Positions 5,964 through 23,505 of a stretch of DNA of 64,000 nucleotides are shown here, one piece after another; the first letter of the stretch is position 1, and every line of letters starts with the position of its first letter. Source of the DNA: Candidatus Latescibacterota bacterium (GTDB lineage: Bacteria > Latescibacterota > UBA2968 > GCA-2709665); NCBI GenBank assembly GCA_965203805.1, contig OZ241917.1:2720001-2784000 (forward strand), read 5' to 3'. Under the pieces are notes generated by a model, which was not told where the DNA came from, did no database searches, and was given only the letters and a program-made list of their open reading frames with translations. Position numbers and translations under genes: made by a program.

Positions 5964-7160
5964 TCACCCTTGCAGCCGGACCCACTTTCCCACGATACGG
6001 CTCAGCCGCCGCGCGCGGACCCGCCCCACGAGGGGGTATACAGGAAGGAACAGGAGTTGGGGCCACATCGCCAATACGCGGGTTGGCGCCTGGTCCGGCA
6101 GATTCCGGTTTGGCGGAACGACGCAAAGAGACGGTGGCCACAGATGTGCGTCAAAGCCGGCGTCCCAGAGTTTCCGGCACAGGTCCGCGGCGTTTCCGGC
6201 ACGGACGACGAAGAGCCAGTAGGAGTGGTCCGCACGCCGACCCGGATAACAGAGTTCCGGTATGCTTCGGTGGAACGCCGTCGCCTCCGTACGGCAGCCT
6301 GTGCGCTCCAGTGCATTGGAGCGCAGTCTCCTGGACAATAAATGCAAAAGGGCGCCGCATGGTTGACGGCGGATTTTCTTGAGCAACTCCAGCCCCCGGA
6401 AACCCCTGGTAGCGCGGTAACTCACGGCATCGTGCGACAGGCCCAACAACCGGCACGCGGCGCATAGAAGCGTATAGGGACCGGGCCTGTTGAGCAGGAG
6501 AACGACGCCGTATTTCACGAGGCGTATGAAGAACCGCGCCTTGCCCTGGACCGGATAGCTGCGATGCAGCCGCCCGACCTCGCCTCTAAGGTCGGGATCG
6601 CGCACAAAGAGCAGGCCGCCGCCCAACGCGGTATTGTATTTGATCGGGCCGAAGCTGAACATGCGCACGTGGCTCTCCGGATGTCCTGTAAAGTCGTCAC
6701 CCCGATAGGCCTGGGCGCAGTCCTCAAACAGCACCAGGCCATGCTTCCTGGCGAAGCCTACCAGGGGATCCATGGAGATGCGGGCGCCGAACAAATGGGT
6801 GGCCAGCAGCGCAACGGCTCTTGGCGTAAGCCCGTTGTTCAGGCTGTCCGGATCGGGTTCGAGCGTTTGGGGATCCAGATCGACCGGAACGGGCACGAGA
6901 CCGTGGCTCCGGATGATTTCGAGTATGTCGGGGATCGTGACGGCGGACACGAGGACGTGCGACCCGCGCGGAAAACGGGCCGCCTGGAGAACGGCATCGA
7001 AGCCGCTGCGAAGCGAAAGAAAGAAAAGGGCCTCGTCCGGATTGCCGATGCTTTCGCGGCAGGCAGCGTGCCCTTTCGCACGGCGGTCGCCCGAGAGGCA
7101 TTGGCCCATTCCGAAGAGCAGGTCGCGCCAGCCGATATCCAATCTCTTTCGAGGAATCAT
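5964..7160 (-). CDS. DegT/DnrJ/EryC1/StrS family PLP-dependent aminotransferase
   Basis: THLFG, EDCAQA and FSFGPIKxxTALGGG motifs. Probable start is MIPRKRLD at 7160. Confidence 0.85.
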   Translation of the reverse strand: MIPRKRLDIGWRDLLFGMGQCLSGDRRAKGHAACRESIGNPDEALFFLSLRSGFDAVLQAARFPRGSHVLVSAVTIPDILEIIRSHGLVPVPVDLDPQTLEPDPDSLNNGLTPRAVALLATHLFGARISMDPLVGFARKHGLVLFEDCAQAYRGDDFTGHPESHVRMFSFGPIKYNTALGGGLLFVRDPDLRGEVGRLHRSYPVQGKARFFIRLVKYGVVLLLNRPGPYTLLCAACRLLGLSHDAVSYRATRGFRGLELLKKIRRQPCGALLHLLSRRLRSNALERTGCRTEATAFHRSIPELCYPGRRADHSYWLFVVRAGNAADLCRKLWDAGFDAHLWPPSLCVVPPNRNLPDQAPTRVLAMWPQLLFLPVYPLVGRVRARRLSRIVGKWVRLQG

Positions 7161-7514
7161 GGTCGATTCACTCGTTCGCCTGCGCGGTCGGGCAGTTGAG
7201 GAGGGTGTTGGGGAACCGATTCCACATGAACCGAGCGCTCTTTCGGGTAGAGCCTGAACTTCAGGCGCTGATAACTTGCATATCCTCAATGTCTGCGTTC
7301 TTACATTTTTACATCCTCCATAATACCCACATCCTGTTGCATACTGCAACACGTTAATTGACTTCGATATTGTGACGCCGAGGACGCCGGGGGGCGCTAT
7401 CAATGTTTCGTATCCGTGGATAGAAGGCGCGCGTTTCTTCCCGTGCTTCGTCCTTGTCCCGGGAGAGCGTCGTAGACGATTGCCCGTGCGAGGGCATCTG
7501 TGCGGGTCGTGCCA

Positions 7515-8342
7515 TCAGGCGGGATCCTGTTCACTGGGCGTTTCGACCGGCTTCGCTTCGCGCTGCGCCATTTGATTGAACCACCACAAACCGGCCACGG
7601 CCCCGACGATACCGCTCACAAACAACCACCAGGGAAGGAACTCTACAACATGCCAATCCTCGATAGGTCGGAATAACTCCATACGCACCGATATCAACGA
7701 CAGAAAATTGTTCAGCGCGTGACCGAACAACGCGGGCAGCAAGGAACCTGTGTGTATGACCCACCACGCAAATACGATACCCAGTATCATAGATACCGGA
7801 AATTGCCAGGGATTCATATGGAGCACGGCGAACAGTAACGCGGACCACAGAATGGCACGCCTCCGGGTACCATGGGCTAACAACCCGCCCAGAATGACGC
7901 CTCTGCAGAGGACCTCCTCGGTAAGCGGCGCTTGAATCGCCAGGACATAAAACGCAAGACCAAATGGTGTTTTACTGCCCATCAAATCAAGAAACACGTC
8001 GAGTATTACTTCGGGGATTGGAATCAGATATTGTACGAAGCTTGCAAGGTTGGATGAGAAAATGCCCAATCCCACGATCGAGACGGAAACGGGTAAGTAC
8101 ATTTTCCACGGAACTGTCTTGAAAAGCAGGATGTCGGACCACGGCCGACGGGATCGACGTTGCGCATATAGCACGATCAGACCAACGGCGGGCAGATTTA
8201 CAATCAATTTCAGGTAATCGAAGATCCGTGTCGCATTGCCCGACGCGACGCCGAGGAAATGAAGCACCAACCCCAATGCGTTCATTGCTACGAAAAGCAG
8301 GACCACCAACCAAACGGATTGCTTCAAATTCGGATAGGCCAT
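7515..8342 (-). CDS. CPBP (CAAX/Abi) family intramembrane glutamic endopeptidase
   Basis: EEVLCRG, FAVLH and GHALNN motifs; multi-pass hydrophobic; starts MAYPNLKQ after a strong RBS. Confidence 0.9.
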   Translation of the reverse strand: MAYPNLKQSVWLVVLLFVAMNALGLVLHFLGVASGNATRIFDYLKLIVNLPAVGLIVLYAQRRSRRPWSDILLFKTVPWKMYLPVSVSIVGLGIFSSNLASFVQYLIPIPEVILDVFLDLMGSKTPFGLAFYVLAIQAPLTEEVLCRGVILGGLLAHGTRRRAILWSALLFAVLHMNPWQFPVSMILGIVFAWWVIHTGSLLPALFGHALNNFLSLISVRMELFRPIEDWHVVEFLPWWLFVSGIVGAVAGLWWFNQMAQREAKPVETPSEQDPA

Positions 8343-8426
8343 TGATTTCCTCCCTTTCAAGCGGTCAGATGTTCGCACATCTGACGATCCGGATTCCCGG
8401 CGAGGGTCGTCGTCGGGGTTCCGTCA

Positions 8427-9254
8427 TCAGAACTGTTCCCGACCTTCCGGCGTCGCGACCTGTGTGCCTCCGCGCATGGACATCCCATTAAACCACCACA
8501 GTCCGATCAGGGCCAGAATCATGCCGGAACCATGCATCCACCAGGGAAGCATCATACCGGCGCTGACACCATCCGTGGATCCGAGGACGCCAAGATACGA
8601 GGCCGTCACGATCAGAAAGTTGTTCAGCGCGTGTCCGACGATGGCGGGCAGCAGGGAGCCGGTTTGTACGACAATCCATGCGAATACGATCCCCAACAGA
8701 AAAGCGGCGGGAAACTGCCATGGATCTATATGGATAATTGCAAACAGCACCGCCGACCAGACGATGGCTCGAGCCGGAGTCCGGTGGGCCAGCAGGCCGC
8801 CAAGTATAACGCCTCTGAAGAGGACTTCCTTTAAAAGCGGCGCCTGAATCACCATGGTATAAAATCTAAGCGGAAAGGGCTTCTCCTTCCTGGCCCGATC
8901 CCCGACCACATCGAGCATTCCTTCGGGCGGGGATATCAGGTGCCGCAGCAGGTTACCCAGGTCCGATCCGACGATTGCCAATCCGACGACGGCCACGACA
9001 AGCGGAATGTACAATTGTAACGAAACGGCCTTGAACGGCAAGATTTCGGACAAGGTCCGATCGGTTCGACGCTTTGCGTAAAGAACCGCCAGGATGAATC
9101 CGGTCAATATCGAGAGCTGGACGACGTATGGATTCTGGTTTAACTCCTGGCCGACAATCATGCCATGGACGGCAAACGGCACGGTGATTGTCAGGCTGAA
9201 CAGGAAAAACAGCACCACGAGCCATACGGATTGCTTCAAATTGGGATAGGCCAT
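8427..9254 (-). CDS. CPBP family intramembrane protease paralog (first catalytic Glu replaced by Lys)
   Basis: KEVLFRG, FAIIH and GHALNN motifs. Confidence 0.88.
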   Translation of the reverse strand: MAYPNLKQSVWLVVLFFLFSLTITVPFAVHGMIVGQELNQNPYVVQLSILTGFILAVLYAKRRTDRTLSEILPFKAVSLQLYIPLVVAVVGLAIVGSDLGNLLRHLISPPEGMLDVVGDRARKEKPFPLRFYTMVIQAPLLKEVLFRGVILGGLLAHRTPARAIVWSAVLFAIIHIDPWQFPAAFLLGIVFAWIVVQTGSLLPAIVGHALNNFLIVTASYLGVLGSTDGVSAGMMLPWWMHGSGMILALIGLWWFNGMSMRGGTQVATPEGREQF

Positions 9255-10081
9255 CTATTCCCTCCTCTTTTGGACGTCGTTTGCGGCAAATCCATATATC
9301 CGAATACCAGTGCGGTCGGGGAGTGTTCGTTATCGTCCATTGAATCGACATTCACGAACCGGGAACGGTCGGCGGACTTCTCGCTTTCACCATACAGGCA
9401 ATTTCCTTGCAGGGAACGGGTCATGTCTCCTCTCGCGATCGTGAACGACCCGAATCGACGTGCAAGAAACAGGCCAGACTTGAGAAATATGGCAACTTAT
9501 CGTCTATAACCTGAATAATTCACCTAGACAGGAACTTACATGGATGGACAGGATGAACAGGATAAAGACCCAGAGCAGGACAAATGCTCACGATTCCGGG
9601 CCAAACCGATGGATCCTTACCTCCGTGGACAACGAAACATGCCCCTGACCAATCACTTTCGTAATTCATGAAATGCTGACGCGTGATATTTCGCAGAATC
9701 TATTGAAAAACAACCCGTTATACATCAAGACCAGGGTTTTCGTGAATAATCCGCCGTAAATCGTTTAATTGAAGGATTCCGAATCGAAGGGTGCCCGGAG
9801 GTGTCGCAAAACGCGCCTGACTGCCGCGACGTGTATTCCAAATATGCGCGTGCGGAGGGACATAATTTGCGGTACGTGAAGAGATTTGGTCGGCAATCGA
9901 GGGGGCGTGCAAAAAAGCGATGCATTCTGCATCACGGGACGCGTTCTGCAACGATCGGCGCCGGTCGGAAACCGCTTGGAATCGCCAGGGACCGGGAGAC
10001 ACACAAAAAAAATCCCGCTCCATCCCCTCGCCATTCAGTGATGAACTTTCCGGCGGCACCCCGATTAAAGGGTGCCGGGCA

Positions 10082-10223
10082 GTGTCACCACTCACGCAGC
10101 TTTGAGGATGCGGGAAGGTCCTGCGTATTCGCCGGGAACGTGGGAGCTACCCATGCCCCTTTGAGTCGGCTGTTGTATTCGGCAGGCTACCCGACATACG
10201 GGTACTGCCCGAGTGGTGACAAC
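10082..10223 (-). ncRNA. Candidate structured non-coding RNA (about 140 nt)
   Basis: 11-bp perfect closing stem (TGTCACCACTC/GAGTGGTGACA), extensive internal pairing, a sigma70 promoter directly upstream and a GC hairpin directly downstream. Confidence 0.6.
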
Positions 10224-10226
10224 CCG

Positions 10227-10255
10227 AATATAGTGTCCGCTATTGAGAAAAACAA
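10227..10255 (-). promoter_or_regulatory. Putative sigma70 promoter of the ncRNA candidate
   Basis: TTGTTT-17 nt-TATATT on the minus strand; the predicted +1 falls at the start of the closing stem. Confidence 0.55.
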
Positions 10256-10456
10256 GGGGCAAATGAGGTCCGGAATTGGGAAGTCCACCCGTCGGAGGCA
10301 AGGGCGCGCGCCGGTCCCCGGCGTTGAGACGCCGCTGAACGTCGACTACAGATGGACCCCAGCCGGTACGTGAGAGCCGCGCCTTCAGAACGGAAGGATC
10401 GCCACAGGCGAAACACCCCATCAACCGCTTCCACTTCGTGAATGATGAAAGTCCTC

Positions 10457-11260
10457 CTATTCTGATTCCCTGACAGGATAGCAAATGTCCGCCTGTTGCA
10501 TCTCCGTTTGCAGCCAGTTGCTGAACAATGTGTGGCGAATCTCGCTGATGACGCGATCTGTCAGCCTCGCAGGATAGCTTCTCTGCAGCATATACAGTGC
10601 GAAGCCGCCAGGCGCTTTGTCGGGACCGAAGACCTCACCCGGCGCGGCAGCGAAGAGGCGCGCGGCAATGCCCTTCGGCAGATGTTCTCGCCGCAACCGC
10701 CCCCTAAACCCGCCGGCAGGCCGTGTGCGCTCGTCCTGAGAGAATTCGCGGGCTAATGCGCAGAAATCGGCGCCGTCTTCACGTATCTGAAATCGGATTT
10801 CGTCGATGACGCCTCTGTCCTTATGGAAAATCCAGCAGACCTCGGCCTCGTCGAAATCCAGCGTGTGCTGTGCGAAGTAGGGTTCAATCCGTCCCTCCGT
10901 GATTTTTCCGGACATCATGCGCTCCAATCGCCTTACCTGGGCGTCTTCGGCAACGTCACCCAGGGTTATGCCTCGGGACCGGAGCCAGGCTTCCGTGTCT
11001 TCCACGCGTTCCAGGCGATGTCGATACCGCCAGTCGTCGACGTCGCGCTGGATATCCTCAGCCTTCGCGTGGATGCCCTCCCTCTCCGCGAGCTGCCGCA
11101 CCAGCTCTCTTCGAGCGTACTCACCGAGGAATCCGAGGTTGTCTGCAACGCCCAGATGGCGCACAACCTGTTTCAGTGACACGGCGATTCCATTGACCCG
11201 AACCAGCGATAAGGCCCCGGCCTCGTTTGCGGGTTCGTGTTCATCCTGACGGCGCATCAC
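10457..11260 (-). CDS. PpiC/parvulin-type peptidyl-prolyl isomerase (foldase) associated with a type I peptide exporter
   Basis: DFCALAREFSQD-x-AGGFRG rotamase motif; overlaps the HlyD stop, as in cNMP-PCAT/HlyD/PpiC operons. Confidence 0.82.
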   Translation of the reverse strand: MMRRQDEHEPANEAGALSLVRVNGIAVSLKQVVRHLGVADNLGFLGEYARRELVRQLAEREGIHAKAEDIQRDVDDWRYRHRLERVEDTEAWLRSRGITLGDVAEDAQVRRLERMMSGKITEGRIEPYFAQHTLDFDEAEVCWIFHKDRGVIDEIRFQIREDGADFCALAREFSQDERTRPAGGFRGRLRREHLPKGIAARLFAAAPGEVFGPDKAPGGFALYMLQRSYPARLTDRVISEIRHTLFSNWLQTEMQQADICYPVRESE

Positions 11261-12657
11261 GTCTCGCCCTGGCGCGCGGACGGCGTTGTCGCGGCATCGT
11301 ACGTTGCGGACTCGTACAGCTTTCGCAAAGGACTCAGCAGCATCAGCAGGACCGACTGGCGGTCCGTCATGATCTCCGCCGTGCCCTTCATGCCGAAGAG
11401 GAGCGGCTTTTCCTGTCCTTTCACGGCCATGGTGGTCTCCTCCAATTCAACGACCCCTTTGAATATCGGCCCTACGGTCTCGTCGACGACGGCGTCCGGC
11501 GAGATCTGCTTGAGCAATCCGCGTTTAATTCCGAAGTCCTGGAACGCGAAAGCGTCGTATTTCAATTTGACGATCTGTCCCGGCTTGAGCAGGCCCACGT
11601 CCTTGTTCAAAACAGTCAGTTCGGCGACGATCGGCGCGGACGCCGGCGCCAGAGTCGCCAGAGCCTGTCCTTTGTTGATGACATGTCCGAGCGTATTCAC
11701 CTCCACGCGGGTTACAATTCCGGCCTCCGGGGCCAGAATCAGGTCCGATTCGGCATCGAGCTGGCGATCGACGCGTTTGCGCGCCTGATCCAGCCTCAGC
11801 CGCGCGGTCTTGTATGCGTGCCTGATCTGCGCGGCCTCGCGGCCGTGAGCGATGCGAGCCTCGAGAATCCGGCGCTTGAGGTCCTGCACCGCCGTTTCGT
11901 TCTTGTAGATTTCCGACATGCGTCCGGGAAGCTGCGCAAGGGCGGTCAGATATCTGACGCGCGCGCGATTGATCTCCGCCCTGCTGATCAGTTGGCGTTC
12001 GTACAGCATCTTCTGCTGCAGATAGTCTTGTTTCAAATGATCGATTTCGGCCTGACGAAAGCCGATTTGCGCCTGCAATTCCGCATCCGACGGGCCCGCT
12101 CCCCCTTCCTCGAGGGCGCCCACGTCGGCGTGGTAATCCTGCAAGGCATTCTGGTGGGCGACCATGAACCGCTCCAGAACGGACAGCCGTTTATTCAGCG
12201 AAGCGATCGTTTCCCGGTTCAATTCAGTCCTCTGGGGCAATACATGGTGATATTCGTACTCGGCCTTCTGAAACGCCATTTCCGCTTGTTCGAGTTCACG
12301 CAGGTCTCCCCAGGTTTCCCACGATTTGAGCTTGAACAGCAATTGGCCTTCTTCGATGTGGTCGCCTTCCGTAATACCGATGTATTCGATTTCACCGCCG
12401 CGACGGGCCTGCAACGTCTTCACTTTTCCGAGCGGTACGAGCCTGAACGGCGCTGACGCGACCACGTCCACCTTGCCCCACCACGCCCACACGACCGCGA
12501 TGCCGACAAACAGGAGCACGATATATAACAACGCCCGGCCCCAAAACGGTCGGAGGGACCCGATAAACGCGCGCATGTCTTCGGCCGCGTCGTCCCGGGG
12601 CCCGACAACGACAGTCGGCGCGGTACCGGGTGAGGATTTCAGCGGGTGTCCCGTCAC
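11257..12657 (-). CDS. HlyD family type I secretion membrane-fusion protein
   Basis: N-terminal TM helix, long coiled coil, ILAPEAGIV, DVGLLKPGQ-VKLKYDAF-FQDFG and GMKGTAEI motifs. Confidence 0.92.
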   Translation of the reverse strand: MTGHPLKSSPGTAPTVVVGPRDDAAEDMRAFIGSLRPFWGRALLYIVLLFVGIAVVWAWWGKVDVVASAPFRLVPLGKVKTLQARRGGEIEYIGITEGDHIEEGQLLFKLKSWETWGDLRELEQAEMAFQKAEYEYHHVLPQRTELNRETIASLNKRLSVLERFMVAHQNALQDYHADVGALEEGGAGPSDAELQAQIGFRQAEIDHLKQDYLQQKMLYERQLISRAEINRARVRYLTALAQLPGRMSEIYKNETAVQDLKRRILEARIAHGREAAQIRHAYKTARLRLDQARKRVDRQLDAESDLILAPEAGIVTRVEVNTLGHVINKGQALATLAPASAPIVAELTVLNKDVGLLKPGQIVKLKYDAFAFQDFGIKRGLLKQISPDAVVDETVGPIFKGVVELEETTMAVKGQEKPLLFGMKGTAEIMTDRQSVLLMLLSPLRKLYESATYDAATTPSARQGET

Positions 12658-12684
12658 GGGTACGGCTCCTCGCAGGCAGGTGGT

Positions 12685-15600
12685 TCAAGCCATCTGCAAC
12701 TGCTGGCTGGACATGTGGTAGTAAAGGCCGCGGCGATCCATGAGTTCTTCATGGGTTCCCGTGTCGACGATGTGGCCCTTTTCAAGCACGACAATCACGT
12801 CGGCATCCCGCACGGTACTCAAACGGTGAGCAATGATCATTGCGGTGCGGTTTTCGAGGAAAAGGTCCAGGTTTGCCTGGATCGCGCCTTCGGAGTCCGT
12901 ATCCAGTGCGTTTGTGGCTTCGTCGAAGATCAGGATTCCCGGATCACGGTACAGCGCTCTCGCGATCGCAATCCGTTGCCGCTGTCCGCCGGACAATCCG
13001 ATCCCCTGCTCGCCGACTTTTGTCTCATATCCCAGGGGCATCTCGGTCACAAAGTCCTGTACACAGGCCATTCTCGCCACCTCAAGGACCCGGTCCATAT
13101 CGGCGTCGGCTTCTCCAACCGCGATGTTCTCCGCAATCGTGCCGCTGAAAAGAAACGGATCCTGCATCACCATGCCCACCTGGCGCCGAAGCCAGTGCGG
13201 GTCCAGGTCGCGCACGTCCATCCCATCCAGCACCACCCTCCCTTCCGTGGGATCGAACAGGCGCGGCACCAGCTTCACCAGCGTGGTCTTGCCCGCCCCG
13301 CTCCGCCCGACAATGGCGACTTTGCGCCCCGGTTCGAGAATCAGGCTGATGTTGTTCAACACGTAAGGTTCGTCGGAGCCCACGCCGTATCTGAAAAACA
13401 CATCGTCGAATATAACGCGGCCTTCCACCCGTTTCAGTCTCATGCCGTGCCCGCGCTGGCGCGCATCCTCCATCTCTGCGTCGTACACGTCATTCAGCCT
13501 GTCCAGGGCGACGCGGGCTTCCTGCACCTCCGGCCAGACGCCGATCAACCCCATTACAGGTCCCATAACGTTGCCGATGAGCGCGTTGAACGCCATCAAC
13601 TGCCCCACGGACAGCTCCCCTTCCATAACCAGGGATGCGCCGTACCACAGGATCACGGTTGAACTCAGCAGATTGATCATACTGCCCCCCGCCCCGAACA
13701 GCATTTCCATTTTCAAACGCTTGAAACCGATCTGGATTTCTTTCGTGAACTTCCCTTCCCATTGCCACCTGGTGACGCGTTCGACGGCCTCGGCCTTCAC
13801 CACGTCGACGCCGTGCAATGAGTCGATCAGGACGGACGACTGCTCCGCGCGGGCAAGAAAGGCGCGCTGGCTGAACGACTTCAATATCGGGGTATAAATC
13901 AGCGTGAGACCCACGGAAAGCGGCACGAAGATCAACATCACGAGCGTCAGCTCCCAATTGTAATAGAACATCAGTCCCAGATAGACGAACAACATGATGA
14001 AGTCCAGTATTGCGGACACGGTCGTGTCGGTAAACAGGCGCTGGATCGTGGCGTTCTCCTTGAACCGCGTGGTCAAATCGCCGGTGCGCCTCAGCGCGAA
14101 GAATCGCATGGAAAGACCCAGCAGGTGCCGGTAGAACCTGCACAACATCGTAAGGCTGAGGCGCGCGCTGATATATCCGATGAGATATGCGCGCAAGGTC
14201 GACGTCCCCATCTGGAACAGCGCCACAACGACCATACCCGCCAGCATCAGGTTCAGCAGATCCCTGTCGTGATGCACAAGTACCTGGTCCACGATCGTCT
14301 GTGTGAATACCGGGGAGGCCAGTCCGAACAGACTGAGCACCAGAGACGCCAGCAACACCTCGATCAGGATGGGTGTATAAGGCTTGATCAACGGGAAGAA
14401 CCGCTTGAAGGAAGACCTGGAGGGTTCATTCTCGGACACCTGATCCGTGTATTCCAGCAGGAGGGCCATATTGGTCCAGCTCTTCTCGAATTCCGCACGG
14501 GACAACGTCCGGAGGCCCAGGGCGGGATCCGCGATCCTCACGTCTTTTCTGGTGATTTCGTACAGCACCACGAAATGGTTGCCTTCCCAGTGCAGGATCG
14601 CCGGCAGTCCGGTCCGCATCAGCGCTTCGTATCCCGTACGCACGCCGCGCGTGACGAACCCGAGCGTCTCCGCCGCTTCGGCCAGCGCCGCCATCGACGT
14701 GCCGTCGCGGGAAACGTTGCACATATCGCGCAGCCGGTTCAGCCCGATCGGCATCTTGTAATACTTGCAGATCATCCCCAGACACGCCGCCCCGCAATCG
14801 GACTGATCATGCTGTTTCAGGAATGGATAGCGGAACGAAGACGGCGCGCCGTTTCTTCCATCATCCGATTCACCGCTCCCGGTTCCGTCTGCCGGTCCGT
14901 TCGCGTCTGCGACGTTCTTCTTTTCCGGCGATCGGGCTTCGACCCTGGCGCGCACTTCGGAAGGACGGGTCCCGAGGGACGGTGACACGTTCGAATTCTC
15001 TCCTGCATGCAACTGACGCACCAGGGACGTGGCGGACCCGAACGCGGCAGCCGCGTCGCCAAGGTCACGAAAGTCGCTATCGGCGAGGTAAAACAGAACA
15101 CTATCCCGGGTACTGCGGACAACCGGGGGCCCGCCTTCGGAACGATCGGTTTCCTCGAAGAAATCACCCGCGACCAGACGACGGGCGACGCCATCCCCGG
15201 ACATCATCTCCAGCTCGCCGCTTCCCACCACGCAGAACCGCCCTCGCGACTGACCGGGACCGGAAACCGTCGCTCCCGTCGCAATCTCCTCACGCTTCAT
15301 ACGACGGAACAACCTCCGCATCGCATCCCCGGAAACGGACCCTTTCAGAAACCTCGTGAAATCCCGATATGGGATATTCGCCACCTGATCCTGGAGATGT
15401 GCTTTCAGTTCGGGTTCTTTTTTCGTCACGTTGACGAAGTCACCCCGCGACACACGCAAAACCTCGGAATCCTCCACCGCGCGCACCGATGCCCGATGTC
15501 CGCGGCCGGTCAGCAGCGCCCCCTCGCCGAAATGGTCGCCGGGATACAGGAAACCCAGGGTTTCAGGATGGCCGTCCGCATTTCGCCCGATCACTCGCAA

Positions 15601-15726
15601 CCGACCCGATCGCACGATGTAGAACGCATCGCCGGGTCTCCCCTGATCGAAGACGACCGACCCGAAGGGAAATCCGACCGGCTCTGACCGAATCGACATT
15701 TGAGAAATGAGGGATAGGACGTCCAT
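12685..15726 (-). CDS. Peptidase C39-containing ABC transporter (PCAT) with N-terminal cNMP-binding domains
   Basis: cNMP domain (GDHFGEGALL...RASVRA) and a second degenerate one; C39 domain QHDQSDCGAAC/HWEGNHFVV/IADP; TMD; NBD with GRSGAGKT, LSGGQRQR and DEATNALD. Confidence 0.95.
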   Translation of the reverse strand: MDVLSLISQMSIRSEPVGFPFGSVVFDQGRPGDAFYIVRSGRLRVIGRNADGHPETLGFLYPGDHFGEGALLTGRGHRASVRAVEDSEVLRVSRGDFVNVTKKEPELKAHLQDQVANIPYRDFTRFLKGSVSGDAMRRLFRRMKREEIATGATVSGPGQSRGRFCVVGSGELEMMSGDGVARRLVAGDFFEETDRSEGGPPVVRSTRDSVLFYLADSDFRDLGDAAAAFGSATSLVRQLHAGENSNVSPSLGTRPSEVRARVEARSPEKKNVADANGPADGTGSGESDDGRNGAPSSFRYPFLKQHDQSDCGAACLGMICKYYKMPIGLNRLRDMCNVSRDGTSMAALAEAAETLGFVTRGVRTGYEALMRTGLPAILHWEGNHFVVLYEITRKDVRIADPALGLRTLSRAEFEKSWTNMALLLEYTDQVSENEPSRSSFKRFFPLIKPYTPILIEVLLASLVLSLFGLASPVFTQTIVDQVLVHHDRDLLNLMLAGMVVVALFQMGTSTLRAYLIGYISARLSLTMLCRFYRHLLGLSMRFFALRRTGDLTTRFKENATIQRLFTDTTVSAILDFIMLFVYLGLMFYYNWELTLVMLIFVPLSVGLTLIYTPILKSFSQRAFLARAEQSSVLIDSLHGVDVVKAEAVERVTRWQWEGKFTKEIQIGFKRLKMEMLFGAGGSMINLLSSTVILWYGASLVMEGELSVGQLMAFNALIGNVMGPVMGLIGVWPEVQEARVALDRLNDVYDAEMEDARQRGHGMRLKRVEGRVIFDDVFFRYGVGSDEPYVLNNISLILEPGRKVAIVGRSGAGKTTLVKLVPRLFDPTEGRVVLDGMDVRDLDPHWLRRQVGMVMQDPFLFSGTIAENIAVGEADADMDRVLEVARMACVQDFVTEMPLGYETKVGEQGIGLSGGQRQRIAIARALYRDPGILIFDEATNALDTDSEGAIQANLDLFLENRTAMIIAHRLSTVRDADVIVVLEKGHIVDTGTHEELMDRRGLYYHMSSQQLQMA

Positions 15727-15818
15727 GGATTGATTCCCGCGATTCGCAGCGTTGTTCGAATCTCCGGATGTAGACCGGTGTCCAGCAGGCTACTGCACGT
15801 TGAATTTCGATCCCATAT

Positions 15819-15834
15819 ATACTATATATAGTAT
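15819..15834. promoter_or_regulatory. Perfect 16-bp palindrome upstream of the PCAT gene (candidate operator)
   Basis: ATACTATATATAGTAT about 90 bp upstream of the PCAT start. Confidence 0.35.
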
Positions 15835-15891
15835 GTCAGTGTGCGTGATCCGCTGTCTCGTGACGCAGCGATACGTCCCCAACCGGCGCGG

Positions 15892-16767
15892 CTACTTCGG
15901 AGGCAGTGAGCGCCCCACGAGTCCCGGCGTTGCATCCGTCCCGGGATCTTCAGGCGGGACCTCGCCCTCAGAAACGGGCTCAGCGGGCTTCGCAACCCGG
16001 GAAAACCACCACAGTCCCACAGCAGCGAGCGCCACCCCGGCCGCACTGAACCACCAGGGGTTGAACGCTACGTCGTTGAGGTCACCCGAAATGTCTATAT
16101 CCGATATATCAGAATGCAGAATCGTCACGGCGATTAGGTTGTTCAATGCGTGTCCGAACAGGGCGGGCAACAAGGATCCTGTACGGATAACCCACCACGC
16201 CCAGACCATGCCTGATATGAAGATAGGCACAAATGTCCACGGGTCCAGATGCAACATTCCAAACAAGACTGCTGACAATAGAACCGCGCAGACCCTTGAA
16301 TGATGTGCCAGCAGACCACTCAGGATAATGCCTCTGAATAGCAACTCTTCGCCCAGAGGCGCGATGACGGCTGCCCCGAAGACAGCCGACAGAAAAGACG
16401 TCTTGCGCAGGATCTCCGAACGATAGATTTCCTGCATCCACTCGGGAACGGGAGCAATCCGAATCGCGACTTTCATCAATTCGGTATCGAGCATCCCCAG
16501 GCCGACGACTGATATTGCAACGCAGGGCCATATCCGCCAATCAAACCGCGTGTTGAATAGAGGACGTATATATCGCCAGTCCAGATCCGTGCGCCGGTAA
16601 ACATAACCCAGAAGAATGACGAAATTCACCAGCAACAGAATTCCCATCAGGAAATCGTCTTCAAACTTCCACCGGTCGACAACGAGCACCGCCACCGCCA
16701 GGCCAACCTGAATCAACAGGAACAGAAACAGTAACCAGATCGTCTGTTTCAGGTTCGGATACGCCAT
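15892..16767 (-). CDS. CPBP family intramembrane protease
   Basis: EELLFRG, FGMLH and GHALNN motifs; N-terminus MAYPNLKQ. Confidence 0.9.
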   Translation of the reverse strand: MAYPNLKQTIWLLFLFLLIQVGLAVAVLVVDRWKFEDDFLMGILLLVNFVILLGYVYRRTDLDWRYIRPLFNTRFDWRIWPCVAISVVGLGMLDTELMKVAIRIAPVPEWMQEIYRSEILRKTSFLSAVFGAAVIAPLGEELLFRGIILSGLLAHHSRVCAVLLSAVLFGMLHLDPWTFVPIFISGMVWAWWVIRTGSLLPALFGHALNNLIAVTILHSDISDIDISGDLNDVAFNPWWFSAAGVALAAVGLWWFSRVAKPAEPVSEGEVPPEDPGTDATPGLVGRSLPPK

Positions 16768-16779
16768 ATGGATAACTTA

Positions 16780-17649
16780 TTATGTTGAGGATGAAGAACC
16801 CGGATCGTACCGCATTGGTTCGTGGGGTTCATCAACGCGTATTGTCGGCGCCTCTCTGGAGGACAAAACGTAGAATCCGGCTTCCGACGAATGATCCTGA
16901 ATCCAACTGTCATTGTCATATCTGCGAGCCTTTGAATAAACCATGACATCTCCCGCGCCTCCGGCAAACGTGGCACAAAGTAGCAAGACCGACCAGACCG
17001 CCGGATCAAACGACAGAATTAAAACCGCGGCGGGTGTTGTTACGATCAACGGGAGTAGCGCGAATGCCCGGTATGCGCTCAGTGTCATCGGTTTGTCAGC
17101 GTGGCAGTAAAAGGCCGTTAATCGCAAGTTGATTCCAAAGTGCAGCGAACTAAATGGAATTTTCCCCCACGCCATCGCGGCAATACCGTGAAGTGCTTCG
17201 TGAATCACAAACAAGGCGATTAGTCCTCCAATCAATTTCCATAGATCGACGAGAGGAAATCGCAGCTCTATCGCCCATGGAAGCAAGGCATCTGCCCCGA
17301 TGACAGACATTCCCGAAATCCAGAACATCAAAAAACACAAACTGTAAATCTCGTGTTTTTCAAGAATCACTTCAGTGACGTTAGAATCCTGGCCGGGTTC
17401 AATTCCGCCTGGATTCGACACACATAACCCGCCGACTGCGGTCACCATTCCCGCTGCGGTTTCATAGAGCTTTTTTCGAAAGATTATAAACGAGAATGCC
17501 TGAACAACCAGGACCGCCATCAGGATCACAAGATCGAATTGAATGACGTACCTGAGAATCAGCAAAGCAGGCGCAACGGAAAATAGCGCATACGATATGG
17601 CCGCGAGAATCCAACGACTCCACGTTCCCCCTGGGAGGACATCCTTCAT
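16780..17649 (-). CDS. DUF3267 family putative zincin membrane metallopeptidase
   Basis: HEALH in a TM context, FYCH, LLPLI, GGAGD and IQDH motifs. Confidence 0.8.
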   Translation of the reverse strand: MKDVLPGGTWSRWILAAISYALFSVAPALLILRYVIQFDLVILMAVLVVQAFSFIIFRKKLYETAAGMVTAVGGLCVSNPGGIEPGQDSNVTEVILEKHEIYSLCFLMFWISGMSVIGADALLPWAIELRFPLVDLWKLIGGLIALFVIHEALHGIAAMAWGKIPFSSLHFGINLRLTAFYCHADKPMTLSAYRAFALLPLIVTTPAAVLILSFDPAVWSVLLLCATFAGGAGDVMVYSKARRYDNDSWIQDHSSEAGFYVLSSREAPTIRVDEPHEPMRYDPGSSSST

Positions 17650-17748
17650 CCGGAACCTCCGATGCTGTGTCTATTGGTCTTTCTTGTGAATCAATGGACT
17701 ATTGCCTGATTTGTTCGTGTCACAAACTTAGAACTCTGCGATCTGCGG

Positions 17749-18603
17749 CTAGTCGCCGTCTGCTGGCGAATCTGCCGTCTCAGTCACGAGGGGGTTGGCT
17801 GATTGCGTCTTCTTCGATATCTGGCGAAACCACCAGAGTCCTAGTGTAGCCAATAACACGCCAGCGCCTGTCCACCACCAGGGATTGAAAAACACAACAT
17901 TGAAGTCTTCTGCTACCTCGAGATATGGTATTTCGAAGTGCAACGTCGTGACGCCGATGAGATTGTTCAATGCGTGGCCGAAAAGCGCAGGCCACAAGGA
18001 TCCAGTCCGGAAATACCACCAGGCGAATACGAGCCCGTACAATAGGGCCGGTGGAAATTGCCAGGGATTGAGATGACCCACGCCAAACAGAAACGCCGAC
18101 CAGAAAATCGCCCTGTTCCTGGTATAGTGTGCCAGCAAACCGGCAAATATCGCGCCTCTGTATAGCAACTCTTCAACGATCGGGGCGACAAACACGGCCC
18201 GGAACACGGCTGAGGAGTAAGATGTTTTGCGCCCGAACTCCGATTTAAAAATGTCCTGGATTAAATCGGGCATAGGAATCAACCGAATTACCGCTTTGTC
18301 CATTTCAAGTAGAACCATCCCGATACCAAAGATCGAAATTGCCACACAAGGCCACACACGCCAATCAAAGTTTGTGTTCAGCAATTGTGATGTGTCTCTC
18401 CAGGTTCGATCCGCGCGGCGGAATACGTAGCGCAAGTAGAGAAAGTAAACCACCAGAGTCGATATGCCTGTCAACAGGTTTTCGTGTCGAGAACTTTCGC
18501 CAAGGACGGTCTGTACAACGTAGATGATGAGTTCCAAAACCGACTCTGTTATCCAGAATAGAACCACTAACCAGATGGACTGCCGAATGTTCGGATACGT
18601 CAT
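17749..18603 (-). CDS. CPBP family intramembrane protease
   Basis: EELLYRG, FGVGH and GHALNN motifs; N-terminus MTYPNIRQ. Confidence 0.9.
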   Translation of the reverse strand: MTYPNIRQSIWLVVLFWITESVLELIIYVVQTVLGESSRHENLLTGISTLVVYFLYLRYVFRRADRTWRDTSQLLNTNFDWRVWPCVAISIFGIGMVLLEMDKAVIRLIPMPDLIQDIFKSEFGRKTSYSSAVFRAVFVAPIVEELLYRGAIFAGLLAHYTRNRAIFWSAFLFGVGHLNPWQFPPALLYGLVFAWWYFRTGSLWPALFGHALNNLIGVTTLHFEIPYLEVAEDFNVVFFNPWWWTGAGVLLATLGLWWFRQISKKTQSANPLVTETADSPADGD

Positions 18604-18910
18604 TCGAATATCCTATCGTAAGGCGTCGCGGACCGTGGTTTCACGTGGGGCCGAGATCTTTAGTTGGATTACGCCTAAAGAAGAAGTAGACGCAAGATAA
18701 TGATCTGGAAAGGTCACTCACACTGCAATCTAAACGTGCCTTCCGGCGCTCTATCCGGATTCCTGCATCGGCTTCCTCGGCAAATTACCAGAGTGAATGA
18801 GGCGTGATCTCGCCGTTCCTCCAGCCCTTTTGCAACCTTAGAGAATGCGAGCGATTGAATGCACTTGGGCCCAAACTCTCCGTGGGCCCTCCCCTCCTCG
18901 CATGGTTGAC

Positions 18911-19516
18911 TCACTCGACTGGGGTCTCGCCCTCCGGCCAAATGGTACAACCAGGTTCGGATGGATGATCTCTGACCCAGAGATTCTTGTCGTAGTCCTG
19001 GACTTTGAAATACATCAATACGTCCCCTGAACACCCTGAGAACGCCACACTGAAGAGTAATAGTGTCCAGATAGCTGGATCCAAAAGGATCACAAGACCG
19101 GTAACGAATGTAGTAACTAAAAGAGGCAGGAGCAGCAAGACACGAAAATTACCCATCCTCATCCGGCTCGAAAAATGGCAATAAGGGGCCAGCCATTTCC
19201 ATTTGAATCCGAAACGAACCGAACTGTATGGGACCTTGCCCCACTTCAGTGCGGCAAAGGCGTGTAGCGCCTCATGAAAGACGACGATGAGAATTGTACA
19301 AGCCAGAAACATCCAGCGGTCGCGATTGAGGAAGCGGAAATCGATTTTCCATAAATTGACTATATCGCCTACTAAAGCAAGAGTAAACGCGAAACAGAAC
19401 ATTACTAACGAAAAAACAACCATATAGACTTTGTCAACGCGAAACTCAAGAATCTCGTGTCCGATCTTATCTCGATCGAGTAATCGCCCCGAATCGGCTC
19501 CTTCATTCATCGGCAT
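18911..19516 (-). CDS. DUF3267 family putative zincin membrane metallopeptidase
   Basis: HEALH, APYCH, GCSGD and VRDHPSEPG motifs; paralog of 16780-17649. Probable ATG at 19516. Confidence 0.8.
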   Translation of the reverse strand: MPMNEGADSGRLLDRDKIGHEILEFRVDKVYMVVFSLVMFCFAFTLALVGDIVNLWKIDFRFLNRDRWMFLACTILIVVFHEALHAFAALKWGKVPYSSVRFGFKWKWLAPYCHFSSRMRMGNFRVLLLLPLLVTTFVTGLVILLDPAIWTLLLFSVAFSGCSGDVLMYFKVQDYDKNLWVRDHPSEPGCTIWPEGETPVE

Positions 19517-19731
19517 ACCATCCTCACGCTTCCGCGTTCGAATCAAGATTGCAGTGCCTACCAGGTCTCGTGATTGTGACCCCTGGATGGAGAAAATCGG
19601 AAGTCGCAAAGCAGAGTAGCACTTGGGTCTTATCGAATAGCAACGGCATCAGGACCGGTGCAGGCTCCCCCATGCAAACCTGCACCGGTCGCGTCAGACA
19701 CTGCCTACGGAATCTTTCCGATCTGTCGCTC

Positions 19732-20025
19732 TCAGAAATTCGATAGTCCGTCGGCCATGTCGGATATGAAGCCACCGGCAACGAAATCTACGGCGTCGTT
19801 AGCCCTATCCCAATACCACTGAGCCGCTTCCGCAGTACCTGTGGGATTTGTAATTGCACTGACTGTGATTCCAACCAGTACGCCTAGTACAAATGGAGCT
19901 AAACCTCCGGAAATTTCTGCCACTGATTCCCTAGCCAAATCCTCCTGCAGAATTGGTAAGGTAGAAAATGCTGACAACACTTGGCCAGCATCTGTCGCCA
20001 CTGGATTCGACAATACATGGGTCAT
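19732..20025 (-). CDS. Double-glycine-leader precursor peptide 1 (41-aa leader, 56-aa core)
   Basis: RBS AGGAGG; leader ends LPILQEDLARESVAEISGG; hydrophobic core with GxxxG. Confidence 0.8.
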   Translation of the reverse strand: MTHVLSNPVATDAGQVLSAFSTLPILQEDLARESVAEISGGLAPFVLGVLVGITVSAITNPTGTAEAAQWYWDRANDAVDFVAGGFISDMADGLSNF

Positions 20026-20454
20026 TTTATCCTCCTGAAGAGTAAAACGTTATTGCTGATTTGCAAACAAGTGGCTTGAATCTCGCGTTACGAAAACGGT
20101 GACTATTCCTGACGGTTACCGGGTTCGAGAATCGTGCTGTTCCTCTCGTCGGGATGTCAGGTCCGGTGCTCCTTCGATAGCCATGGCGGTCGATCGGGGT
20201 CTGATTATCGAAGGTCCATCGGACGCCAATGTAACACGCACCGTCACTTTATCACGCAGTTTATTCGTTCACTGGCGTGAGGCGCCGGCAAGTCCCGTCT
20301 CCCTACACTAAAGGGAACTTCGTTCATTCACTGTTGGGTTGGATCGCGGAAGATTCCGCGTTGACTTCCCGGAGTCTGCTGAGAAGCCCACTGCATCAGT
20401 AGTCGAGATTGGCAGGATGGATCACTTTCCGCCTGACAAACCCCGCACCGAGTT

Positions 20455-20655
20455 TCAGTCGCCGAAATAATCGGCGATGGCTTCTGCAATTTTCATGCCA
20501 ATCCATCTTGACATGAAACGCGGCCCCAAAGGTGGCACACCAATTCCACCCGATGCATTCGCCATCTCACGCCGCACAAGATTGGTTTCCCGGCCTGGAA
20601 GTTGGGCGCAGGTCGCGACGGCTAGCGCGGGCTGCAACTGAATTCGATCTGTCAT
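20455..20655 (-). CDS. Double-glycine-leader precursor peptide 2 (37-aa leader, 29-aa core)
   Basis: RBS GGAG; leader ends LPGRETNLVRREMANASGG; core IGVPPLGPRFMSRWIGMKIAEAIADYFGD. Confidence 0.72.
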   Translation of the reverse strand: MTDRIQLQPALAVATCAQLPGRETNLVRREMANASGGIGVPPLGPRFMSRWIGMKIAEAIADYFGD

Positions 20656-20736
20656 TTCTCCACGTCCTTTCTGTATTGTTTCTGGCACGAACACGTGAGT
20701 TTTCAATCCAGACTTAACCTGACTGCTTCAACTCCA

Positions 20737-20940
20737 CTACAGTGTACGGCTCGACCTGTCCGGCTCCGGCAAGGTTACGCCGAATATTTCAGCGACCCAA
20801 TTTCTGAGAAGGCGGCCCAGCCCGGCGTCGCCGCCGGAAATTCGTGCGGTCTGCCCTGCGGTCAGGTCTTCCGTCTGAACCGGCAGACGGGCCGGAACTT
20901 CGTGAGACGCCGCAGGGCTCGATGCGATTCTTCTGTTCAT
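20737..20940 (-). CDS. Double-glycine-leader precursor peptide 3 (37-aa leader, 30-aa core)
   Basis: RBS AAAGGAGGTG; leader ends LPVQTEDLTAGQTARISGG; core DAGLGRLLRNWVAEIFGVTLPEPDRSSRTL. Confidence 0.75.
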   Translation of the reverse strand: MNRRIASSPAASHEVPARLPVQTEDLTAGQTARISGGDAGLGRLLRNWVAEIFGVTLPEPDRSSRTL

Positions 20941-21352
20941 GTCTTTCACCTCCTTTCGTCGGCATCCTCGCGACGTCCGGACAATCGTGTTGCCCCTCCG
21001 ATAACCGGATTCGCGTCGCGCAGATGCATTGATGTCCGAAGCGTCTGTAACCCTTCTTCCTCCCGCGGCATACGCCCCGCGGGAGGCGGCTTCGGCTTTG
21101 AACCAAAGGGTGCGTTTTGCCACGGAACGCGAGCGCGGTCCGCAACGCTGTCGATGCATTGGAACCGCAAGGACTGTGCCACTCGCGACACCCCCCGGCA
21201 TAACTGACTGGCCTGCAAATGCGAATCGATTTGAAGACTTCCGGGAGGCCGATGTCTCTCGGCGAATCGTTGAAATATGTGTTCCATTCTGCGTCACTCG
21301 GGTGAAACCATGTTGCCTTTGGCGCCTCAGAGACCCTGTCTGGAACCGGCAC

Positions 21353-21384
21353 AAAAAAACACCGGCGACATAGGTCACCGGTGT
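21353..21384 (-). terminator. Rho-independent terminator in the region upstream of the precursor genes
   Basis: Minus strand ACACCGGTGAC-CTAT-GTCGCCGGTGT followed by a T run. Confidence 0.65.
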
Positions 21385-21655
21385 ATTCATTGAAAACATA
21401 GAGGGGTTACGTCATCTCGCGTTCCGCCGAGGTTGATCAGAGAGGCAAGAAGTCAACGAGAAGCGAAGGGGACCCGTGATCGGCCCATTCAAAACGACTG
21501 AATTCCAGTTGCCGAACTTCCGGGATATCGTTAAACTTGGGACAACGTTGTCAATCTTTCAGCGGAACGTACGTCAGAAATGTTCCTTCAGTCTCCAGAT
21601 TTATCGTTCACATACCGGGCTGCGGCCCTACACGATCTGCAACCGATCGATAACC

Positions 21656-22435: not shown

Positions 22436-22903
22436 GTGGAGGTCCATACAGTGAGAAATGTCGATATTGCGGTGACCGGCGCCGATGGAACACTCCAGCT
22501 CGTCCTGGAAATCAAGAACGTGCCGGGTGCAACTGCCGAGTGGGTCATCCTGATGCGTCGCAACTTGCTTGCCCATTCGTTTCTGCCTCCGGCGCCATTC
22601 TTCCTGCTTGTGCTCCCGGACTTTTTGTACCTCTGGACAGGGTCCTCTACGTTAGATGGTTTGGCAAAACCTGACTATAAAATCGAAACCTCCGAAATGC
22701 TCGCGCCATATCTTAAATATAACCAATCCCTTATTGAACTAAGTCGATATGGGCTGGAAATGCTTACGGTGTCGTGGCTGGAAGATATACTTCATGCTGA
22801 CCTGAGACGAGACTCGGTTGACGGCAATCTCAGATGGATTTTTGACTCGGGGTTATATAGAGCAATTACAAACGGTTCCCTGGAACTCGAAGCGATGACA
22901 TGA
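22436..22903 (+). CDS. Hypothetical protein with a PD-(D/E)xK-like N-terminus
   Basis: VDIAV...LVLEIK motif; overlaps the following PIN gene (ATGA). Confidence 0.65.
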   Translation: MEVHTVRNVDIAVTGADGTLQLVLEIKNVPGATAEWVILMRRNLLAHSFLPPAPFFLLVLPDFLYLWTGSSTLDGLAKPDYKIETSEMLAPYLKYNQSLIELSRYGLEMLTVSWLEDILHADLRRDSVDGNLRWIFDSGLYRAITNGSLELEAMT

Positions 22904-23505
22904 TTGTATACCTTGAGTCAAATTTCGTACTTGAACTGGCATTTCTTCAAGCCGAGCATGAACATTGCTCGGCACTTTTGCGTCTATCGGAATCGGGAGA
23001 GATTCGCCTGGTTTTACCGGCATTCAGCATCGGTGAACCGTACGAAACGTGGGTGCGCCGCTCGAAGCGAAGACGAGACGTCCACGAGGAGTTGACTACC
23101 GCAATTCGAGAACTTTCCCGGTCAAGTCCTTACGAACGGGTAACCGACCATTTCCACGAACTCACTGGAATACTGATCCGAAGTGGTGAGGAGGAGAAGC
23201 GCCGTTTGGATGAAACCCTGGAAGACATCCTGAGAACCGTTGAAGTAATACCGATTGGATTGAGCATTATCAGAGCGGCCATAAATTACCAAAGGAAGCT
23301 AACCCTTTCGCCGCAAGATTCGATAGTTTACGCTTCGGTTCTCGATCACCTGAATCCAGAATCATCCGAGCCAGGCTGTTTCATAACCACGAACTCAAGA
23401 GATTTCGCCAATCCGGACATCGAAACCGAACTTACTGACCACAACTGCCGGCTGCTGACAAAATTCGCCGACGGCGTGGGGTATATCCGAAGTCAGTTGT
23501 CGTGA
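22900..23505 (+). CDS. PIN-domain protein
   Basis: VYLESNFVLE, QDSIVYAS and FITTNSRDF acidic PIN motifs. Confidence 0.82.
   Translation: MIVYLESNFVLELAFLQAEHEHCSALLRLSESGEIRLVLPAFSIGEPYETWVRRSKRRRDVHEELTTAIRELSRSSPYERVTDHFHELTGILIRSGEEEKRRLDETLEDILRTVEVIPIGLSIIRAAINYQRKLTLSPQDSIVYASVLDHLNPESSEPGCFITTNSRDFANPDIETELTDHNCRLLTKFADGVGYIRSQLS

Follow-up and report, generated by a model that had tools for sequence, protein, structure and literature searches.

The locus at positions 7515-20940 of a 64,000-nucleotide stretch of DNA from a Candidatus Latescibacterota bacterium (assembly GCA_965203805.1, contig OZ241917.1, positions 2,720,001 to 2,784,000; the whole stretch is called the window below, and coordinates refer to it) encodes three small peptides with double-glycine (GG) leaders, a peptidase-containing ATP-binding cassette transporter (PCAT) with two partner proteins, and six genes of intramembrane protease families. 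From the sequence we read it, in this uncultured marine lineage, as a probable lineage-restricted, bacteriocin-like, multi-peptide secretion locus working by the mechanism proposed below, and give this reading a probability of roughly 0.55. Every long open reading frame (ORF) in the locus is on the minus strand, and the ORF lists and Pfam matches agree with the initial annotation of this DNA on the order, strand and domains of the twelve genes. In transcription order, with a gap of 1.2 kb between the PpiC and CPBP_b genes in which a small RNA (sRNA) lies, the features are:

20737..20940, minus strand: pep3 precursor, 67 aa, with a 37-aa leader ending in SGG and a 30-aa amphipathic core of net charge 0
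20455..20655, minus strand: pep2 precursor, 66 aa, with a 37-aa leader ending in SGG and a 29-aa core with an acidic C-terminus and net charge 0
19732..20025, minus strand: pep1 precursor, 97 aa, with a 41-aa leader ending in SGG and a 56-aa core of net charge -5
18911..19609, minus strand: DUF3267_b, a site-2 protease (S2P)-like intramembrane zincin (PF11667, E 1e-16)
17749..18603, minus strand: CPBP_d, Rce1-like, of the upstream super-clade (PF02517, E 3e-21), with EExxxR, FxxxH and HxxxN intact
16780..17649, minus strand: DUF3267_a, long form, its N-terminus extended by a hydrophobic region (PF11667, E 4e-15), in clade A of the tree
15892..16767, minus strand: CPBP_c, Rce1-like (PF02517, E 2e-21), motifs intact
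12685..15726, minus strand: PCAT, 1013 aa, with two cNMP_binding stretches, Peptidase_C39, ABC_membrane and ABC_tran in Pfam
11257..12657, minus strand: HlyD-type periplasmic adaptor (PF13437, HlyD_3, 1e-12), with an N-terminal transmembrane (TM) segment at residues 37-67
10457..11260, minus strand: PpiC/SurA-like rotamase protein (PF00639, 3e-10)
10006..10256, minus strand: structured sRNA resembling sRNA-Xcc1, with TTG...TATATT promoter-like hexamers and a T-run
8427..9254, minus strand: CPBP_b, Rce1-like (PF02517, E 1e-20), its motif 1 reading K-E rather than E-E
7515..8342, minus strand: CPBP_a, Rce1-like (PF02517, E 1e-18), motifs intact

Are the three small ORFs real genes? An AGGAGG/GGAG-type, Shine-Dalgarno-like ribosome-binding site precedes the ATG of each. 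The pep2 start is the ATG at 20655, which aligns with the starts of its orthologues, and not the upstream TTG; the pep2 leader scores 66 bits against a leader hidden Markov model (HMM). The pep3 gene sits within a longer ORF (20737..21399), the sequence upstream of its ATG being AAGGAGGTG; it scores 54 bits against the leader HMM and has tblastn matches in 16 of 19 loci from relatives. These 19 loci formed the set used for synteny. The precursor ORFs are open and in the same positions in them, and mismatches between leader codons are most frequent at the third position (720/686/1114, 1719/2015/3491 and 1577/1344/2035 at positions 1/2/3). On this sequence evidence the three small ORFs are genuine genes. 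The initial annotation had named a lack of conservation of these ORFs as something that would speak against it; they are conserved in the relatives' loci, and that objection therefore falls away.

The precursors differ in kind. The pep1 core, aligned across 19 relatives (alignment A4), has a predicted TM helix that starts directly after the Gly-Gly (Kyte-Doolittle segment, residues 34-60); pep2 and pep3 have no hydrophobic segment of helix length. Neither pep2 nor pep3 matches any Pfam or NCBIfam family, and pep1 has no significant match in either, scoring 14.9 bits (E 0.017, residues 35-58 only) against TIGR03949, the class IIb lactobin A/cerein 7B model, whose cut-off is 21.5. None of the three cores in the window contains Cys.

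The leader HMM found 64 peptides in 21 loci, mostly two to four per locus. Leaders end in xGG in 57 of the 64, and 43 of these end in SGG, while the cores of the peptides found in this way are of several unrelated types. Mean within-genus identity in the three leader families is 61, 55 and 47% for leaders versus 43, 36 and 29% for the respective cores. A profile of the 64 peptides was also run against a collection of 5.8 billion sequences and against cluster representatives among 1.84 billion. The former search returned 42 proteins, all unnamed or 'hypothetical' and none with a Pfam domain; the latter returned 99 cluster representatives with very diverse cores, 98 of them 54-168 residues long. 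Within the phylum, peptides were found in 41 of 168 genomes, and only in two families that belong to a single order of Candidatus Latescibacterota (17/21 and 23/31 genomes; the twelve other families gave 0/115). The genome at hand has no leader-type peptides besides the three of the locus, which also holds its single C39 match, its two DUF3267 genes and four of its six CPBP genes. The order PCAT-HlyD-PpiC with leader-type peptides upstream is kept in 18 of the 19 relatives' loci. That the locus exports peptides with GG leaders is, we consider, very probable.

Two variants of the cores were observed. An alternative pep1-type core (loci L026-L031; for example proteins P0019 and P0022) combines a long hydrophobic stretch with a basic tail, rich in Cys, at the C-terminus, and the gene after it usually encodes the long DUF3267 form. 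In the sister family many cores begin with Cys.

Pfam matches to the PCAT are Peptidase_C39 (PF03412, E 6e-40), ABC_membrane (3e-53) and ABC_tran (2e-33), and the C39 domain keeps Q305, C311, H384 and D400, which we take to be the catalytic set of ComA and PCAT1. The earlier description of a double-glycine-leader peptide locus with a PCAT thus holds. The protein scores 511.1 bits against TIGR01193, just under the cut-off of 523.85, and matches PCAT1 (4ry2) with E 4e-129 over residues 299-1008. The adaptor likewise falls just short of the TIGR01843 cut-off (205.7 versus 208.65 bits). The PpiC/SurA-like protein, in which no hydrophobic or TM segment is predicted, matches TIGR04500 ('putative peptide maturation system protein') over positions 83-335 of the 340 in the profile, at 89.5 bits against a cut-off of 180. 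There is no outer-membrane factor gene in the cluster; seven TolC-like genes are present elsewhere in the genome. Could this exporter instead carry another cargo, for example a large RTX-type protein, with the small ORFs merely incidental? HlyB is a slightly better match to the transporter than PCAT1 among PDB entries (E 3e-141 versus 4e-129), and its best NCBIfam model, albeit below that model's cut-off, is type_I_sec_HlyB. However, the C39-like domain of HlyB-type transporters is inactive and lacks the Cys, whereas the domain here retains Cys, His and Asp; the cluster encodes no large repeat protein; and precursors with a conserved xGG leader adjoin the exporter in all 19 relatives' loci. 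We regard another cargo as extremely improbable.

What do the two DUF3267 proteins do? The true start of DUF3267_b is probably the ATG at 19516, and in DUF3267_a the HExxH motif occurs as HEALH at residue 150. The HExxH and a distal Asp are, along with some other residues, unchanged in all 20 aligned DUF3267 sequences. An AlphaFold2 (AF2) model of DUF3267_b has a mean confidence score (pLDDT) of 79.4, and site-2 proteases took ranks 1, 2, 4 and 6 in a structural search with it against representative structures, at middling Z scores (SpoIVFB 7.1, RseP 6.4 and 5.5, mjS2P 5.4); Foldseek against the PDB gave no hit to the model at E <= 0.001, the top one being 3b4r at E 0.55. The only characterised DUF3267 protein offers a precedent. 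According to the text available of PMC13712780 (mBio 2026), TmcP is a protease of the S2P clan that acts within the membrane and removes the 45-residue leader of the membrane-inserted peptide TmcA; mature TmcA starts with a TM helix (PMC13712780; PMC12328743). In the available text of PMC12328743 the TMcins, to which TmcA belongs, are known only from Bacillota and Actinomycetota.

This precedent suggests a rival account of the proteases as biosynthetic enzymes. As in TMcin maturation, pep1 would insert into the membrane by its helix and the adjacent DUF3267 would trim or remove its leader there, the CPBP proteins would cut pep2 or pep3 further, and the PCAT would then extract and export the products. 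The layout of pep1 is the same as that of TmcA, a leader (here of 41 aa) and then directly a TM helix (PMC13712780, PMC12328743, as far as their available text goes), although the pair of conserved cysteines by which TMcins are defined is absent from pep1. In 13 of 15 loci the gene right after the TM-helix precursor encodes a DUF3267 protein: this holds for 9/9 loci with a WY.DR-type core, in both families, and for 4/6 loci with a Cys-tail core, the other two having a CPBP gene at this place. Moreover, the DUF3267 sub-clade tracks the type of core, B2 going with one type in 3/3 loci and B1 with another in 4/4, and in the sole same-genus genome without DUF3267 the locus is reduced and the TM-helix precursor type is missing as well. 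The invariant catalytic residues and the resemblance of the predicted DUF3267_b structure to the S2P fold point the same way. Such counts overstate independence because the genomes are kin, however, and the co-variation could come from linked inheritance alone. Clade-A DUF3267 is also kept in seven loci that lack the Cys-tail peptide it accompanies elsewhere, the intact C39 domain and the xGG leaders already explain leader removal, and six proteases for three peptides exceed what processing needs. Prediction of a complex between DUF3267_b (residues 32-232) and pep1 gave a score of 0.01 against a mark of 0.32, which speaks neither for nor against binding. We treat maturation of this kind as possible but doubtful. 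A census of DUF3267 outside the lineage (23 loci from Bacillus, Bacteroidales, Flavobacteriia, Anaerolineae and others) gave no neighbouring C39, HlyD, PpiC, CPBP or leader peptide in any of the 23; three of these loci have generic ABC-ATPase matches only.

The four CPBP proteins all exceed the PF02517 cut-off, and the motifs EExxxR, FxxxH and HxxxN/D are complete in CPBP_a, CPBP_c and CPBP_d. The N-terminus of CPBP_a, with its ATG at 8342, aligns with those of its paralogues and is common to the other three. In the tree the CPBP proteins fall into an upstream and a downstream super-clade, with several sub-clades. The E-E of motif 1 is kept in 43 of 53 proteins and is replaced by K-E in all nine members of the CPBP_b clade (CPBP_b and eight orthologues), which, to judge by this substitution, is possibly a non-catalytic paralogue. 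The count of six membrane proteases in the initial annotation was correct as to genes and families, with the qualification that CPBP_b carries K-E rather than E-E. Separately, one sister-family copy (L023:5624-6490) has D-E in motif 1 and has lost both motif histidines. The number of intact proteases per locus varies between species from three to seven, and protease gene fragments and in-frame stops are common in the relatives' loci. CPBP/Abi proteins give bacteriocin immunity in Firmicutes. Self-protection is favoured because of this precedent together with the turnover of the proteases, the orphan copies and the clade with an altered motif; even so, that the proteases serve mainly in immunity is in our estimate an even bet. 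Self-protection and TMcin-like processing are not mutually exclusive.

The bacteriocin-like reading can now be set out as a mechanism. From the computed domains, motifs, synteny and pattern of conserved leaders with variable cores, we infer cleavage, export, cyclic-nucleotide control, toxicity and immunity in the following way. Three ribosomal precursors would be made with leaders of 37-41 residues, and the single PCAT of the genome would, by its C39 domain, recognise these leaders and cut after the Gly-Gly. The cores would then be pumped through the PCAT and HlyD and leave by a TolC-type channel of the outer membrane, encoded at an unlinked site, with the two N-terminal cNMP-binding domains making export respond to a cyclic nucleotide, and with the PpiC/SurA-like protein, which has no signal peptide, chaperoning the precursors. 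The main task of the six proteases, four CPBP and two DUF3267, would be to protect the producer's inner membrane by binding or cutting peptide that inserts into the membrane or re-enters it, and the DUF3267 adjoining pep1 would be dedicated to that membrane-spanning peptide.

Several points weigh against this bacteriocin-like reading and should be kept in view. We know of CPBP immunity only from monoderm bacteria. The cores, with net charges of 0, 0 and -5, are neutral to acidic, unlike typical class II bacteriocins, which are cationic. The invariance of the DUF3267 HExxH and distal Asp is a further difficulty, and the three leader families, which occur together and in a fixed order, suggest one multi-component product rather than independent toxins. 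Glycosyltransferases found in the sister family (below) mean that the peptides of the system as a whole may not be unmodified. Finally, in the available text of PMC13712780 the one characterised DUF3267 is a processing enzyme and not an immunity protein.

A bolder combination of these elements would make the locus a diderm counterpart of the TMcin systems. Here pep1 would be matured in the membrane by DUF3267 and extracted from the bilayer and driven out over both membranes by a PCAT/HlyD/TolC route gated by cyclic nucleotide, to give a membrane-active product of three components in which the two amphipathic peptides are its partners, while the CPBP proteins would process or escort the peptides. 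We think this rather unlikely.

Alternatively, the peptides could be secreted signals, used in quorum sensing or between host and symbiont, with the CPBP proteins resembling known signal-processing proteases and the cNMP domains tying secretion to the state of the cell. PCATs do export signalling peptides as well, for example ComC via ComA, and ComA is among the PDB matches of the transporter (E 3e-115). The neutral to acidic cores would suit signals, and the cNMP domains suggest regulated release. There is also a weak match to the NCBIfam model for MroQ, at 24-33 bits, far under its cut-off of 270. There is no two-component sensor or other receptor gene in the cluster or the scanned flanks; cores of 29-56 residues, one including a TM helix, are unlike known autoinducing peptides; and conflict is the better match for core diversity this extreme and for accessory genes that turn over. 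A signalling role is quite unlikely in our judgement.

The initial annotation had reported no modifying enzyme, and the following scans agree with it. The genome has 24 radical-SAM matches, none of them in the window, and no YcaO match; it also has no LanC-like match, by a weak search in which the control genomes were silent too. A Pfam scan of ten flanking ORFs (1903-28371) found only DegT, GtrA, PIN, methyltransferase and similar domains. The statement does not carry over to the sister family, however, where all seven loci examined (L020-L025 and L044; e.g. L021:5934-8789) hold two glycosyltransferases, one of GT28_C type and one of GT1 type, directly upstream of the precursors. These are 82-92% identical, and in some loci they are placed between the DUF3267 gene and the precursors. 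The sister-family version of the system could thus be glycosylated. Might the products in general be glycosylated or otherwise modified ribosomally synthesized peptides (RiPPs), the modifying enzymes of this genus being encoded outside the cluster core? A DegT-type sugar aminotransferase gene lies on the same strand 112 nt downstream of the cluster and a GtrA-like gene also flanks it, both syntenic across the genus, and these could be cited in favour along with the sister-family enzymes. But such synteny is no evidence of a functional link because it is expected among close relatives. Neither glycosyltransferase has a tblastn match in the 64-kb window or in 13 same-genus loci, and the cores of the window lack Cys, whereas the sister-family cores beside the glycosyltransferases often begin with it. 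Modification in this genus appears improbable.

How does the locus compare with known systems? The initial annotation had recognised the cNMP-PCAT/HlyD/PpiC trio as one known from cyanobacteria, and it does correspond to groups I, II and VI of Wang et al. 2011, in which a long CAP_ED-C39 transporter occurs with HlyD and a SurA/rotamase protein (PMC3140520, PMC4558948, from the text available). Group I consists of the trio alone and few precursors have been identified for it, on average 0.35 per cluster (same sources and extent). The locus resembles group I in having a long transporter with CAP_ED and C39 domains, HlyD, a SurA/rotamase protein and nearby double-glycine precursors in a cluster without a tailoring enzyme. 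It is unlike group I in its host, Latescibacterota rather than cyanobacteria; in its precursors, which are always present and number two to four per same-genus locus; in its leaders, which form a family of their own without an NHLP, Nif11 or other match; and in its CPBP and DUF3267 arrays; CAAX, Abi and immunity are not mentioned in the available portion of PMC3140520.

With TMcin clusters, as set out in the accessible parts of PMC12328743 and PMC13712780, the locus shares a leader of about 40-45 residues followed directly by a TM helix and a short C-terminal domain, encoded beside DUF3267/PF11667 and an ABC exporter. It differs from those descriptions in its diderm host, in having a PCAT and HlyD instead of TmcBC, and in a leader that ends in Gly-Gly with a C39 peptidase present. 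In addition, the pep1 core lacks the conserved Cys pair and no DsbA-like gene was found; no recognisable TmcE and no 2-TM gene of unknown family were seen, as judged without the TmcE sequence; and the locus has four CPBP genes and two more families of peptides besides. The likeness of pep1 to TmcA described here is one of architecture.

To the models of the three-gene NHLP/Nif11 transport cassette (TIGR03794, TIGR03796, TIGR03797) the PCAT and HlyD give long partial matches, but at 589 and 31 bits these lie under the cut-offs of 853 and 156. A second ABC subunit is absent, and the precursors are of another type. The class II bacteriocin loci of lactic acid bacteria encode unmodified peptides with double-glycine leaders, often two or more per locus. 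The locus is like those that include Abi/CPBP genes in its double-glycine peptides, its PCAT with an accessory protein and the CPBP proteins alongside; it is unlike them in belonging to a diderm, with an HlyD adaptor, an unlinked TolC-type channel, cNMP domains and a PpiC-like protein, and in its neutral or acidic cores, its DUF3267 genes and a TIGR03949 match that stays below threshold.

The initial annotation had not recognised the combination as a described system. The full assembly was indeed not found in the literature on DUF3267, Latescibacter bacteriocins and CPBP immunity (articles, not the supplementary cluster tables of Wang et al. 2011 and the TMcin papers), but the pairing of DUF3267 with a TM-helix peptide has the TMcin precedent. 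Each part has a precedent, and the assembly is that of a Wang group I exporter with a private GG-leader family, a TMcin-like pair of DUF3267 and helix peptide, and CPBP arrays, in a diderm lineage.

A conserved precursor family is now linked to the widespread and still uncharacterised cNMP-PCAT/HlyD/SurA export cassette, and few substrates have ever been identified for the cyanobacterial group I relatives of this exporter. DUF3267 stands beside a TM-helix peptide in a diderm, while its only known role was published in 2025-26 for Gram-positive bacteria. The locus would allow tests of how a PCAT handles membrane-spanning cargo, of cNMP control, and of CPBP/DUF3267 arrays as immunity versus processing factors, and its peptide family brings to hand, from uncultured Latescibacterota, about 100 natural cores that vary greatly but share one type of leader. 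Were the diderm TMcin counterpart to prove true, TMcin-type biosynthesis would extend beyond Gram-positives and PCATs would gain a role in membrane extraction.

The sRNA at 10006-10256, put forward in the initial annotation as a non-coding RNA candidate, is a real structured RNA but an independent multi-copy family rather than a component specific to the cluster. It has 87-93% nucleotide identity in 11 same-genus loci, far above that of the neighbouring protein genes. The locus of G001 (L030), whose exporter genes resemble those of the window more closely than any other relative's do, has no copy. Four further copies bring the total in the genome to five, and copies, one to six each, occur in 26 of 41 relatives. 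The promoter-like hexamers are common to all 16 aligned sRNAs (12 orthologues and four paralogues), and the RNAalifold consensus has 48 pairs, 13 with compensatory changes. Four of the five genome copies (that of the window and three paralogues) match RF02221 (sRNA-Xcc1) over the whole model, 1-87, with large loop insertions, at 24-28 bits, under the gathering score of 53; the fifth, L074, has no RF02221 match at E <= 1. Two paralogues adjoin IS1595 transposase genes. A cis-regulatory link between sRNA and cluster was considered and dropped, because the four paralogues sit away from cluster-type genes, with no cluster protein in their neighbourhoods and with ORFs just downstream that have no Pfam match. 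It is a real small RNA family, of which a conserved copy happens to lie in the locus. The gap that holds it (9255-10456) gave no gene remnant by blastx against the cluster's own proteins (best E 1.6).

A promoter and terminator scan of 7000-21600 gave four promoter-like sites where 8.0 were expected and 17 terminator-like ones where 14.8 were expected, and it showed two strong hairpins. A strong hairpin with a T-run, its 11-bp stem having seven G-C pairs, lies upstream of pep3 at 21359-21384 on the minus strand; it probably ends a preceding minus-strand transcript and marks the upstream edge of the cluster.

Some of the relatives' loci are degraded or reduced. At L018 (genome G014, 9277-10304) only about the first 345 PCAT residues are detectable, and the 9 kb that follow hold no HlyD, PpiC or downstream CPBP gene; still intact are four precursor genes, one DUF3267 gene and two CPBP genes. 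At L024 (G026, 6650-10960) the PCAT match is split into three, two in-frame TGA codons occur, and about 1.3 kb separates query residues 779 and 777; the whole looks like an insertion or a disrupted gene. The reduced same-genus locus L082 (G012, 12656-15173) lacks pep2, pep1, both DUF3267 genes and CPBP_c, and its CPBP_d is N-terminally truncated; in place of the missing genes is one for a peptide rich in Gly and Ala, whose leader has the IDG ending also seen in the sister family.

Two observations concern the surroundings of the cluster. A 155-aa ORF without a family match overlaps the start of a gene with a PIN_12 domain (22436-23505, plus strand); the two look like a toxin-antitoxin pair, which is kept in four same-genus loci. 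On the other side, a 620-aa protein without a Pfam match (3787-5649, minus strand) is 87-95% identical in same-genus relatives.

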